The position numbers and the translations under genes are program-made. Below, one piece after another: positions 55,347-59,297 of a DNA stretch of 64,000 nucleotides. Position 1 is the first letter of the stretch. Every line of letters begins with the position of its first letter. Source of the DNA: a virus. The notes beneath the pieces are model-generated. The model saw only the letters and a list, made by a program, of their open reading frames with translations. It searched no databases and was not told the DNA's origin. The DNA lies in the IMG/VR virus record IMGVR_UViG_3300027782_000038. One strand, 5' to 3'.

Positions 55347-56159
55347 ATGGTGACAAGAGCATCAAAGTCCAAAAAAACTCCCATAGAAGAAGTATCATTC
55401 AAACAACAATTTGATACAACTACAAAAGAAAATAATTATGAGGATAAGTATCAATCTCAAAGTAAATCAAGTAATCATTTAAAGATTCGTATTGATGATT
55501 TAAAAACATTCGACCCACTTACAGAAAACCAAAAGATTTTCTTTGATTCTTATAGGCGTGGTGACTATTTTGTAGCATTACATGGTGTGGCAGGTACAGG
55601 TAAAACATTTTGTGCTTTATATAAGGCTTTAGAGGAAGTTTTAGACAAGAGTAATCCTTTTAAGAAGATTATTATTGTAAGGTCAGCAGTACAGTCTAGA
55701 GAGATTGGACATTTACCGGGTGATGTAAATGAAAAGATGGAAATATTTCAGCAACCATATGTTCAGATTTGTGACACATTATTTGGTCGTAAAGATGCAT
55801 ATCAAAGATTAAGTGAACAAGGTTACATTGAATTTATTTCTACATCTTTTATTCGTGGTATGAGTTTTGATGATGCAATCATTATTGTAGATGAAATGCA
55901 GAATCTTAACTTTGAAGAAATTGATACAGTAATGACCCGTGTAGGTTATCGTTCCAAAATTATTTGGTGTGGTGATTATAGACAAACTGATTTGAATAAA
56001 CGTAAAAATGATATGACTGGTATTCTTAAATTCTTTGATATTGCTATACACATGGGTGCCTTCACTAGAATTGAATTTACTGCCGAAGATATTGTTAGGA
56101 GCAGTCTTGTGAAGGACTACATATTAGCTAAGATGAGATATGAGGATAACGAAAAATAA
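55347..56159 (+). CDS. phoH: PhoH-like ATPase
   Basis: GVAGTGKT, IG.LPG, RGMSF, IVDEMQN, GD..Q.DL, DIVRS. Confidence 0.95.
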   Translation: MVTRASKSKKTPIEEVSFKQQFDTTTKENNYEDKYQSQSKSSNHLKIRIDDLKTFDPLTENQKIFFDSYRRGDYFVALHGVAGTGKTFCALYKALEEVLDKSNPFKKIIIVRSAVQSREIGHLPGDVNEKMEIFQQPYVQICDTLFGRKDAYQRLSEQGYIEFISTSFIRGMSFDDAIIIVDEMQNLNFEEIDTVMTRVGYRSKIIWCGDYRQTDLNKRKNDMTGILKFFDIAIHMGAFTRIEFTAEDIVRSSLVKDYILAKMRYEDNEK

Positions 56160-56161
56160 TA

Positions 56162-56821
56162 ATGTTTAACTATTGCCCACCAATTCAACTGCCAGATATA
56201 AAATCAACAACCTTTCCTGATGGGAAAAGGTACTATACACTCCCTGATGGTACTCGTTTACCTTCTGTTACAACTGTAATTGGTGCTCAGAAGAAACAGT
56301 CGATCATGGAATGGCGTCAACGGGTTGGTGAGGCAAAAGCTAATGAAATCTCCCGTAAAGCAACAGGCCGTGGCACCAATGTTCATACAATCTGTGAGAA
56401 TTATCTAAATAATAAATCAGATTTTATGAAAGGTATCATGCCTGATGCTGTAGAGTTCTTTCTAAGTATCAAACCATATCTTAATAAAATCAATAACATA
56501 CACTATCAAGAAGCTGCACTTTGGTCAACTAAATTACAAATGGCAGGTCGTGTGGATTGTATTGGTGAATATGAAGGTGAACTATCCGTTATTGATTTTA
56601 AAACTGCAAGTCGAACGAAAACCAGAGATCAAATCTTAGATTACTTTTGGCAAACTACCGCATACGCTTTGATGTATGGGGAATTGGTAGGTGTTCCTAT
56701 AAATAAATTGGTTATTATTATGGCGGTAGAAGATAAAGAACCTTTAATCTTCATTGAAAAGACTGAGGATCATATTCAAGGTCTGGTAGATGCTATTAAA
56801 TTTTATAGAGAACAGGCTTGA
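56162..56821 (+). CDS. PD-(D/E)xK exonuclease
   Basis: PSVTT, RGT.VH, AGRVD, IDFKT, Q..AY. Confidence 0.85.
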   Translation: MFNYCPPIQLPDIKSTTFPDGKRYYTLPDGTRLPSVTTVIGAQKKQSIMEWRQRVGEAKANEISRKATGRGTNVHTICENYLNNKSDFMKGIMPDAVEFFLSIKPYLNKINNIHYQEAALWSTKLQMAGRVDCIGEYEGELSVIDFKTASRTKTRDQILDYFWQTTAYALMYGELVGVPINKLVIIMAVEDKEPLIFIEKTEDHIQGLVDAIKFYREQA

Positions 56822-56847
56822 CATTGTATGTTTTTATAGTGTATAAT
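56818..56847 (+). promoter_or_regulatory. Sigma70-type promoter for the endonuclease/tmRNA locus
   Basis: TTGACA, 18 bp, TATAAT. Confidence 0.8.
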
Positions 56848-56899
56848 GTAAGTTATGGTTGTATGAAGTAAAGAGAAAAGTGTTGATTTTGGAATTATT

Positions 56900-57562
56900 A
56901 TGAATTTAAATAAAAAACAAATTATAGATGAAAAAGGTCAAATCAGAACAACCAATTTTTGGAATATTGAAATAGATTATAATAATATTACAGAATTAGA
57001 AGAACTAAGAAAAATTATAAGTGGACAGATTCAAAGTATAAAAAGTAAATTTAATGGATTGAAAAACTTAAAAAAAGAAAGATTTGAATCTTGTATAGAC
57101 ATTTACAATACTGACATTTCTCATCTTTATTCTGAAATAAAATTAGACGAAAAACCAATCTACTATGTTTATGCACACTGTATGTCAAATAAAATTGCAG
57201 CGAAAAAAGATGGAATAACTACGTGGGCTGCAACTATAGGATTTACTCACATACCATTCTATATTGGAAAAGGTACAGGTAGAAGAGCATTTGATTTAAA
57301 TCGTAACGAAACTCACAAAAAAGTTAGAGAAAAATTAAAAATTTTTGATAAAAATATAGAAGTTAAAATAATAAAAGAAAATTTAACTGAAATGGAAGCA
57401 TTATGTTTAGAATCAAAATTTATTGATATTTTTGGTTTGATGGGTAAAAGTGGTAGACTGGTAAATTTAGATGAAGGTTTAAAATCTAAAGAAAGACAGA
57501 TGTTATACCGAGATAGTTTAATTAAATTAAATAGTTTTTATGAGAATTCGTTGAAGGTATAG
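56900..57562 (+). mobile_element. GIY-YIG homing endonuclease at the tmRNA locus
   Basis: YYVYAH...PFYIGKG.G.R, EAL.LE..I..FG, LVN. Confidence 0.8.
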
Positions 57563-57850
57563 TAGTGACGGACAGGACGGGAGGTGACTGCTCCCCAGGT
57601 CCACCATAAAGTATATTGACCCGATAAGACACTCTAAAGTCTGAACTGGGAAAACTGTATATTAATATACTTTATAATGGGCCTGAATAATGTCGAATCG
57701 ACTGACGGAACAATGATACTGGAGAATCGTGAAGCACTCACGTAAAATAGCGCAAAAAACGTAAATGCAAATGACGAAAGTTTTGCTTTAGCAGCCTAAA
57801 CACTGCTTAGGGTATTCGGTTGGTTTCCCTCGTAACAGAATTAACCAACC
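57543..57850 (+). ncRNA. ssrA: Circularly permuted (two-piece) tmRNA; outer ends approximate
   Basis: T-arm plus CAGGTCC-A-CCA at 57579-57606 precedes the 5' strand GGGCCTG at 57679 (7-bp acceptor stem with G3:U70); tag GCA..TAA 57767-57799 = ANDESFALAA. Confidence 0.92.
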
Positions 57851-57890
57851 ATTTCACACACAGCAGTTATACACACTAAGGAGAAGTAAA

Positions 57891-58130
57891 ATGAGTTTAA
57901 ATCCATATGAAGTACGTTTAGAAGTTTTGAAGATGGCCGCAGGAATGCTTAATGATGAATATTATGGTAAACGACAGGTAATTGATGAAAATTTTCATAC
58001 ACAGGTTGCCACCGCTAGGGAAAATAATACTACACCACCAGATCATCCTGGATTTCCCGATTTTCCAACAGAAGAAAAGATTCTAGAAAAAGCAAACAAA
58101 CTTTATAAGTTTATTTCAGAATCGAAGTAA
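57891..58130 (+). CDS. Hypothetical protein
   Basis: AAGGAG SD; PYE.RLE.LKMA...PT.E.I..KA..L..F. Confidence 0.65.
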   Translation: MSLNPYEVRLEVLKMAAGMLNDEYYGKRQVIDENFHTQVATARENNTTPPDHPGFPDFPTEEKILEKANKLYKFISESK

Positions 58131-58188
58131 TGCAATAGGTTCGATGGGTTCCATAATACCCATCACCTTATTAACAACAGGATATATA

Positions 58189-58410
58189 ATGCCTAGTCGT
58201 GAAGAAATTAAAGATTTTAGTTTGATGATTGAACATCTTTCTATAGAGAAAAAAATGGGACTGATGGATGCAATCTGTCATTATTGTAAAGAAAGTGGGT
58301 TGGAAGTTGAAGTATCCGCCACTCTCATTTCACCCGTATTGAAATCTAAAATCCGTGAAGAAGCAGAATCACTTAACCTAATTAAAAAGACTAGCAAGTT
58401 ACCAATATGA
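58189..58410 (+). CDS. 33: Late transcription coactivator (T4 gp33)
   Basis: DAI.HYC...GLE.E....LIS..LK.KI..EA; gene order 33-59-32. Confidence 0.85.
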   Translation: MPSREEIKDFSLMIEHLSIEKKMGLMDAICHYCKESGLEVEVSATLISPVLKSKIREEAESLNLIKKTSKLPI

Positions 58411-59024
58411 CAGAAAATACTGGCTTCTCTGCGTTTGCCATGTATAATTCTTTTAAGTTACATTTCACTTCCACATCCTATGATTATTTTAAGTATCATG
58501 GGAAAACAAATGTAACCAAAGAGAATTTCATGCGCCGCAAGGACCGATATTCTTTCTATAAGTTATCAAGAAAATATTCTATAGATGAATTGAAAGAGTA
58601 TTTGGTTGCAAACTTTGTTTATGGTACTAGTACATGGGTGGGAGACTTACTGACACCAGAAGGTGAAGATGCACATAAGAAGTGGCAGAAGATTCACCAG
58701 TCGTTATCCTATACGTTTGAGAATGATATGGACTATCTATTGGACAAGTATGGTATAAAATCTGAAGAAATCTTTAGAGTGGATCGTGGACAACATCCAG
58801 CATTATTGAAAGAGGTTATGTCTGGTTCAGTCAAGATAGAAACATTGGTAATACTAAATGATCTTACCAATTTTGTTGAAGGTCATTGGCAACCAAGGAT
58901 AGAAGATAATATTATTTGGCCCAACTGGTATCTCAAGATTAAGAAATATACTCCGTTTGTTACCTTTGATAAAACTAAGTTTAAAAGTATATTGAAAGAA
59001 AAGATACAGGAATATATGGTATAA
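58407..59024 (+). CDS. 59: Helicase loader (T4 gp59)
   Basis: KLHF...YDYFKY.GK, F..RKD...F.KL, IETL. Confidence 0.9.
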   Translation: MTENTGFSAFAMYNSFKLHFTSTSYDYFKYHGKTNVTKENFMRRKDRYSFYKLSRKYSIDELKEYLVANFVYGTSTWVGDLLTPEGEDAHKKWQKIHQSLSYTFENDMDYLLDKYGIKSEEIFRVDRGQHPALLKEVMSGSVKIETLVILNDLTNFVEGHWQPRIEDNIIWPNWYLKIKKYTPFVTFDKTKFKSILKEKIQEYMV

Positions 59025-59054
59025 ATAAGTGATAATAATAACTTTGGTGTAATT

Positions 59055-59297
59055 ATGAAATCAATACAAGAACAAATTTACAGATCACGAGCTGGTTTGG
59101 CTGAATCTAGAAAAGATACGGACGAAAAGATTTTGCGTTTATTTACGTTTGGTCACAAGTCACATGAAATTGCTAAAAAATTAAATATTGACCACGATGA
59201 TGTAAAAGATTATATTCAAAATAGAATGCCTAAATCACAAGACAATAGTAGTCGTGGTTATAGTTCTGGTCGTACAGTTGGTCATGGCATGAATTAA
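59055..59297 (+). CDS. Small late-expressed HTH-like protein
   Basis: TATAAATA at 59020; GHKSHEIAKKLNI...DV. Confidence 0.6.
   Translation: MKSIQEQIYRSRAGLAESRKDTDEKILRLFTFGHKSHEIAKKLNIDHDDVKDYIQNRMPKSQDNSSRGYSSGRTVGHGMN

Follow-up and report, generated by a model that had tools for sequence, protein, structure and literature searches.

The 64,000-nucleotide (nt) stretch of the virus record IMGVR_UViG_3300027782_000038, hereafter the window, belongs to a phage of the freshwater, T4-like class and holds, within its replication/early-gene region, a GIY-YIG nuclease gene lodged between the promoter of a transfer-messenger RNA (tmRNA) gene and a permuted, two-piece tmRNA. The gene order is PhoH, a PD-(D/E)XK exonuclease, the nuclease open reading frame (ORF) with the tmRNA, a 79-amino-acid (aa) ORF, the late-transcription coactivator gp33, gp59, and gp32. 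The succession of promoter, leader, GIY-YIG ORF, and acceptor piece had been proposed in the initial annotation of this DNA, and each of these elements was recovered at the place assigned to it. We propose that the resident tmRNA was replaced from nt 29 onward by a mobile cassette in which a free-standing GIY-YIG homing-endonuclease gene is fused to its own variant two-piece tmRNA, a reading that we regard as probable. The features of the locus are as follows.

56818..56847, + strand: sigma-70-type early promoter (TTGACA, 18-nt spacer, TATAAT), the resident tmRNA promoter, now 5' of the nuclease ORF.
56857..56884, + strand: stub left by the displaced resident tmRNA (the opening 28 nt of its acceptor piece), with which the ORF 5' leader now starts.
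56885..56899, + strand: 5' untranslated region at the left margin of the imported segment, unstructured, without a strong Shine-Dalgarno sequence and without similarity to ORF-less alleles.
56900..57562, + strand: GIY-YIG nuclease ORF of 220 aa, probably a free-standing homing endonuclease as judged from its sequence and structural model.
57546..57606, + strand: tmRNA acceptor piece (5' strand AUUCGUUGAAGGUAUAG, T arm, acceptor 3' strand, A73, CCA), from the RF04321 alignment, covariation, and the tabulated T loops.
57607..57678, + strand: intervening segment of 72 nt, between CCA and G1 of GGGCCUG, removed in the maturation of two-piece tmRNAs.
57679..57853, + strand: tmRNA coding piece (acceptor 5' strand GGGCCUG, partners of the 5' strand, hairpin, tag frame, 3' terminal stem), from the RF04321 and RF01850 matches.

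Relatives of the locus were fetched by anchoring on the neighboring exonuclease, yielding 80 viral (IMG/VR) and 80 metagenomic loci. Most of them carry a permuted tmRNA between the exonuclease and gp33, laid out as TTGACA, 17 to 18 nt, TATAAT, about 9 nt, GGUUGUAUGAAG...GUGUUCUGGACG..., T arm, and ...CCACCA. The closest relative found, the metagenome contig L170 (exonuclease 90% identical at the aa level), is devoid of the ORF: it aligns with window positions 56180-56884 at 89.7% identity and then runs straight into an intact tmRNA. After 56884, the window reads GATTTTGG...ATG, whereas L170 reads CAAGACGAGGGTTCGATTCCC...CCACCA followed by the full coding piece. Identity between the two is undetectable over 56885-57761, reaches 81.7% over 57762-57854, and rises to 96.8% from 57853 onward, leaving a differing block of about 970 nt composed of the ORF and a different tmRNA. 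By this alignment, L170 is the empty-site allele, and the invasion of a tmRNA gene suggested in the initial annotation is supported by it.

The promoter scores 12/12, is the sole full match within 56100-58200, and aligns with the promoters directly preceding intact tmRNAs in L170, L073, and L075. The leader that follows it, GGTTGTATGAAGTAAAGAGAAAAGTGTT, is identical at 28/28 positions to the start of the intact tmRNA of L170 (678-705), and leader plus promoter are about 90 to 95% identical in dozens of further loci; homology to all ORF-less alleles ends at 56884. The likeness of the leader to the 5' ends of other phage two-piece tmRNAs, pointed out at first, is real and far beyond chance. As read from these alignments, the leader is the stranded 5' end of the old tmRNA, as had been surmised, since L170 runs into its intact tmRNA where the window has the ORF. 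The idea that the endonuclease brought a replacement 5' end stands insofar as a replacement did come in; however, it comprised not just the 5' strand but a whole divergent allele extending to about 57853. The partner strand in the coding piece fits the new 5' strand and not the old one: the 5' strand is AUUCGUUGAAGGUAUAG in the window versus GGUUGUAUGAAGYAAAG in the resident type, and the partner strand is GGAGAAUCG versus GGACARCUC.

Could the leader still serve as a functional 5' strand, with the ORF lying in a self-splicing intron or with a mature RNA of three pieces? The leader is indeed a perfect copy of a tmRNA 5' strand, and group I introns with LAGLIDADG genes are known to interrupt tmRNA genes in the T loop (PMC11915505). 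Against this, a complete 5' strand supported by covariation belongs to the downstream RNA itself, and the searched intron families gave no match in 56700-57950 even at E up to 5; a group I intron, as a candidate, was rejected on the lack of a covariance-model match and on the completeness of the downstream RNA without the leader. The three-piece RNA, put forward earlier as an alternative, fails on pairing, as the coding piece has GAAU where CAACY, the partner of the leader's GGUUG, would be expected, and the leader-coding duplex (-5.9 kcal/mol) is worse than that of 486/500 shuffled leaders. Moreover, among other ORF-bearing loci, L083 and L184 lack a stub, and that of L084 is of quite another kind. 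We consider both versions extremely improbable.

Thanks to Rfam, a single RNA was found over the whole 64 kb, a full-length permuted tmRNA extending from 57546 to about 57853. The RF04321 (tmRNA_permuted) match covers 57546-57799, reaches 83.1 bits (gathering score 47, E 2e-14), and spans model positions 1-213 of 213; an RF01850 (beta_tmRNA) match reaching 57856 scores 60.3 bits, below the cutoff of 84. The acceptor stem forms between the two pieces, GGGCCUG (from 57679) pairing with CAGGUCC at 7/7 positions, including G3:U70. A73 is present, CCA lies at 57604-57606, and the T arm (57579-57595) has a 5-bp stem. The tag frame (57767-57799) opens on a GCA resume codon at 57767, encodes the peptide ANDESFALAA, and closes with a stop codon at 57797-57799. 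On the basis of these elements and of the model match, the downstream RNA is a permuted two-piece tmRNA.

The structure was counted on eight related RNAs, which we call AUUC-type. In these, 85% of the cells expected to pair do so, versus 31 to 49% when the partners are slid, and in 12/32 pairs both partners vary; examples are found in the acceptor stem, in the T stem, and, as GUAU:AUAC versus GUAG:CUAC, in the helix formed by the last codons of the ORF, while G3:U70 is invariant in 8/8 relatives. Because of this covariation, we conclude that the incoming RNA is maintained by selection and that the 3' end of the ORF is part of it. The duplex energy of the true 5' strand with the coding piece (-11.9 kcal/mol) equals the shuffle mean and is not discriminating; hence, the evidence for pairing comes from the covariance model and covariation and not from thermodynamics.

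Several observations weigh against full activity of this RNA. Its T loop is the non-canonical GUGACUG and not UUCRA, its inner helix (helix 3) is weak, with 59% of cells paired, its Rfam score of 83 bits compares with 100 to 154 bits in ORF-less alleles, and ARAGORN, run on the whole window, reported no tRNA or tmRNA, so that Rfam was needed to find it. Full trans-translation activity is, therefore, not assured. A harsher view of the same features would be that the tmRNA-like sequence is a pseudogene decaying after a crippling insertion and that the locus expresses only the nuclease. This we regard as very unlikely given the pattern of conservation. Identity between the window and L083 is about 90% in the coding piece (57677-57854) but 77% in the block covering the ORF, and the two acceptor pieces are distinguished by just 3 of 61 positions. 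Compensatory changes are seen in the acceptor stem, T stem, and outer helices, and G3:U70, CCA, the resume codon, and the ...ALAA tag are intact. ORF-less phage tmRNAs, too, often have a non-canonical T loop; since this deviation recurs in many related phage tmRNAs, it lowers confidence in activity and not in homology.

The ORF and the RNA share DNA. No stop codon of the ORF occurs before the RNA: its last six codons and its stop (TAG at 57560-57562) are the 5' strand of the tmRNA, and the UAG lies inside the RNA. In the Rfam alignment, GAATTCGTTGAAGGTATAG (57544-57562) and ATACTGGAGAAT (57716-57727) form the two outer helices of the tRNA-like domain, the partners in the coding piece being AUACU (57716-57720) and GAAU (57724-57727). 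The weak pairing noticed at first between the end of the ORF and the coding piece thus corresponds to helices of the Rfam alignment that are kept, with compensatory change, in the eight related RNAs. The AUUC-type RNA is always overlapped by the end of a homologous ORF in L083, L084/85, L086-88, L184, and L169, and NS(LK)V, a motif encoded by the tmRNA 5' strand, ends 47/104 homologues. After ...FYKN, the nuclease tail reads V-stop, VEA-stop, or a longer read-through such as ...VEARGQDAG. These variants follow the RNA, so that the C-terminal tail of the nuclease is dictated by the RNA gene. We also observed three homologues, P0015, P0027, and P0045, which have no early stop and read 8 to 10 codons further into the acceptor piece. 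The same DNA thus encodes the end of a protein, stop codon included, and supplies one strand of a helix in a structured RNA.

The nuclease assignment was examined by family search, alignment, and structural modeling. A search of 5.8 billion proteins returned 104 metagenomic homologues. Y89, V90, Y91, Y121, G123, R129, E171, and N189 are invariant in 46 aligned homologues; with the exception of V90, these residues make up a GIY-YIG signature, with the tyrosines of the GIY and YIG type, the glycine, and the catalytic Arg, Glu, and Asn. The AlphaFold model (predicted local distance difference test score, pLDDT, of 93) places the catalytic domain at residues about 84-200, and VIA-align ranks four GIY-YIG nucleases first: PD-T4-3 (Z 6.7, root mean square deviation [rmsd] 2.9, 83 aa), the I-TevI catalytic domain (Z 6.3, rmsd 2.4, 81 aa), T4 EndoII (Z 4.4), and UvrC (Z 4.3), with unrelated structures following at Z 3.6 or less. 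Foldseek against the PDB gave no match at E 0.001 or better, VIA-align being the clearer of the two. Altogether, sequence and model indicate that the ORF product is a GIY-YIG nuclease. Two points count against the cassette reading. The Pfam match, to PF22945 (LEM-3_GIY-YIG), is subthreshold at 19.5 bits against a cutoff of 27; a few homologues do carry a precomputed PF22945 match. Besides, no separate DNA-binding domain is recognizable: residues 1-83, a beta-hairpin plus helices of no recognized fold, and residues 200-220 are modeled confidently, with matches of Z 3.6 or less.

Among 50,697 phage records, tblastn with the ORF gave two weak matches only, neither of them to T4: an annotated homing endonuclease of Vibrio phage MZH0603 and a 47-aa remnant in Pseudanabaena phage Pam2, a cultured cyanophage, and near neither was there a tmRNA at Rfam thresholds. 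The Pam2 fragment (L250:1573-1716, ON014754.1), which is unannotated, matches only the C-terminal third of the nuclease family and sits inside a 1.1-kb stretch without annotated gene, where Rfam finds no tmRNA; it is probably a decayed copy of the family. A scan of IMG/VR with the single ORF protein returned nothing, and an alignment-based scan was needed to reach homologues. In 15/20 of the distant homologues thus found (35 to 53% identity), a permuted tmRNA adjoins the ORF, most often directly downstream, sometimes upstream or on the opposite strand. As a separate case, all that follows the family member of L095 (3017-3092) is the half of a coding piece that encodes the tag, and no acceptor piece was detected; this may represent a different insertion position within the tmRNA gene. 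Our literature searches retrieved no description of a GIY-YIG gene linked to tmRNA, and a nuclease family living beside phage tmRNA genes seems undescribed.

Such tight linkage, with the tmRNA on either side or strand, also fits a functional partnership and to that extent weighs against a selfish element. The GIY-YIG protein would then be co-expressed with the tmRNA to process its precursor or to cut stalled messages, and the stubs would be ordinary recombination by-products. Conservation of the catalytic residues across about 100 homologues and the physical overlap of ORF and RNA are compatible with this view, but the distribution of the gene is not. The ORF is absent from 80/80 IMG/VR loci, about 60 of which have a tmRNA, and from 79/80 metagenome loci (the exception being L184), most of these relatives having a tmRNA and the closest, L170, being among them. 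Over 233 nt, the window tmRNA shares 97.9% identity with its counterpart in L030/L031, whose flanking genes are only about 72% identical; in these two loci the same tmRNA allele occurs without the ORF, a 44-aa ORF and a promoter standing upstream of the RNA instead. The exact type-B T-arm pattern was found in two IMG/VR contigs only, those of L030 and L031. The low GC content of the ORF (22 to 28% versus 31 to 39% in the flanks), the mosaic identity, and the stubs of displaced alleles are marks of mobility. Moreover, characterized GIY-YIG nucleases are known to act on DNA. Sporadic presence, mosaic identity, relics, and decay thus fit a homing endonuclease and not an obligatory RNA partner, and we hold the partnership to be unlikely. 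On these sequence patterns, the ORF is probably a free-standing, selfish homing endonuclease.

Other loci with AUUC-type RNAs or related tmRNAs differ in what was left upstream. L086-88 retain the promoter with about 31 nt of stub, whose end lies only a few bases from the position of the junction in the window; ahead of their ORF, L084/85 have a whole acceptor piece, the intervening segment, and 13 nt of coding piece; and L083 and L184 have the ORF without a stub. At 56884/56885 itself, the two sides share no homology. The event that first created the stub therefore needs at least one non-homologous (illegitimate) join, a point to be set against the cassette reading.

Three kinds of side observations concern the same region. 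The stub of L084 (2791-3000) and L085 (355-565) has the T loop UAUCGUAU, which is also found in complete tmRNAs behind distant ORF homologues (L089, L109), and this suggests that one cassette displaced another. In L074 (6640-7346), three tmRNA layers follow each other with no nuclease gene: first, the promoter with a full acceptor piece, intervening segment, and 12 nt of coding piece; second, joined to this, the last 11 nt of another acceptor piece, followed by the intervening segment that belongs to it and by about 25 nt of coding piece; and then a complete tmRNA. This looks like a fossil record of repeated allele replacement. Finally, two small genes accompany the tmRNA in several relatives. 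A lysine-rich 44-aa ORF (MK..KL.KKL......HN.E..K.FW.K.LKKS.KG...), without a PHROGs family match, is conserved between promoter and tmRNA in several relatives (L030:4115-4249, L184:1361-1489, and upstream of the tmRNA in L001 and L006). An outer-membrane beta-barrel-like gene of about 148 aa follows the tmRNA in L170 (998-1440), L030 (4648-5094), and L083 (2206-2658, with a weak precomputed match to PF13505, OMP_b-brl) and is absent from the window, being a second presence/absence difference at this locus.

The mobile cassette that we favor builds on an architecture, an empty site, an allele replacement, and an ORF/RNA overlap that are established by sequence comparison. In the mechanism we propose, the nuclease would cut ORF-less tmRNA genes of co-infecting relatives, possibly near the T-arm DNA by analogy with SegB of phage T4, and repair would copy the nuclease gene together with the linked, cut-resistant tmRNA allele.

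The T loop is of interest in this respect, being GUGACUG in the window versus the canonical UUCGAUU in L170. Among unique full tmRNAs, UUCRA loops occur in 2/13 directly behind an ORF versus 26/41 without an ORF (Fisher p 0.004, uncorrected for phylogeny); we take this association between ORF adjacency and non-canonical T loops as a lead and not as a result. Of the unique phage tmRNAs sampled, no more than about half keep UUCRA. Many that lie in nuclease-free loci (L046, L051, L060, L067, L072, L073, L075, and others) form a large group with the T loops UGCAAAU/UGCGAAU, where G replaces the universal U55, and further tmRNAs have GGCAGYA. A possible, though rather doubtful, extension by analogy is that the GIY-YIG family consists of homing endonucleases specialized on phage tmRNA genes, which would recognize the DNA of the T-psi-C arm, their own T loops (GUGACUG, GUGGUG, UAUCGUAU) being altered to escape self-cutting. 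If this were true, an arms race between cassettes would explain the T-loop diversity of aquatic phage tmRNAs and the stacked stubs of L074 and L084, as well as the recruitment, by the nuclease gene, of its expression signals and stop codon from the promoter and 5' strand of the tmRNA. If those RNAs work, a canonical T loop would be dispensable for tmRNA function.

The position of the ORF behind the captured promoter bears on its expression. Sigma-70-like sites inside the ORF are no commoner than in shuffled sequence (best 10/12), and between the promoter and the tmRNA there is no sigma-70 site above chance, no T4-type late promoter motif TATAAATA, and no terminator. The scan covered sigma-70 and late-type promoters only, a restriction that tells against the following proposal. 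It is plausible from the sequence that the nuclease mRNA and the tmRNA come from one shared precursor, as the initial annotation had it: ORF and tmRNA would form a single early transcript from the captured promoter, and the acceptor piece would then need trimming from a 5' extension of roughly 690 nt. On any one transcript, translation of the end of the ORF and folding of the tmRNA 5' helices would be mutually exclusive. Folding of the leader compared with shuffles gave no regulatory hairpin over the ORF start, the leader fold (-1.7 kcal/mol, z +1.8) being less structured than the shuffles. As a separate observation, TATAAATA occurs exactly at 56698-56705, inside the exonuclease gene, and at 59020-59027, just upstream of the ORF at 59055; its count over the window is not above chance.

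Our analysis sheds light on a homing-type event that is clearly recorded: a relative has the empty site, a stub is left stranded next to the promoter, and the imported allele recurs in a distant phage. If our inferences hold, a selfish gene would be exploiting a strong early promoter by forming the 5' leader of an RNA precursor, and the locus would offer a direct test of how much T-loop variation a tmRNA tolerates. The case is also an annotation pitfall, since gene callers would mark the ORF and overlook the RNA, and ARAGORN also misses the tmRNA.

Genomic islands are known to insert at tmRNA genes, and the locus can be compared with several systems. As for genome position and permuted form, it matches marine and aquatic T4-like phages such as Melnitz and pelagimyophages, where a two-piece tmRNA lies directly behind an early promoter, upstream of gp33 (PMC9004378); in contrast, the descriptions of these phages mention no endonuclease gene, stub, or allele replacement, and the window T loop is non-canonical. 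Group I introns, some with LAGLIDADG genes, interrupt the T loop of bacterial tmRNA genes (PMC11915505). They likewise tie a mobile endonuclease gene to the tRNA-like part of a tmRNA gene, but the present locus has no intron by the search of 56700-57950, another nuclease superfamily, and a permuted gene form, and its RNA gene is kept working by exchange of the whole allele and not by splicing.

The nearest functional analogue is SegB of T4, a GIY-YIG homing endonuclease encoded in the tRNA gene cluster, whose site contains the T-psi-C stem-loop motif and which drives the inheritance of neighboring tRNA genes (PMC2330249). Both are free-standing GIY-YIG genes among tRNA-like RNA genes of T4-like phages, both are absent from close relatives, and in both neighboring RNA genes are inherited along with the nuclease gene, as the alignments indicate for the window. 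Moreover, the T-psi-C region contained in the SegB site is the region that differs most between the window and the empty-site alleles. Unlike SegB, the window ORF has its catalytic domain in the middle and C-terminal part and not at the N terminus, and has no sequence similarity to SegB detectable by tblastn. It also overlaps the RNA gene, whose promoter it apparently uses, and its putative target is a tmRNA and not a tRNA gene.

In the intronless homing with co-conversion of T4 SegF/SegG and in fungal mitochondrial mobile ORFs, a replacement copy of the displaced part of the host gene is known to accompany the endonuclease gene. As there, the endonuclease gene of the window travels with a functional substitute and the displaced part is left as a relic, but here nearly the whole RNA gene is substituted, only the promoter and 28 nt remaining, and the substitute is an RNA gene whose 5' strand encodes the tail and stop codon of the nuclease. 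The locus is probably of a known kind, that of free-standing homing endonuclease genes with a linked resistant allele, with a new putative target and an unusual overlap of protein and RNA.

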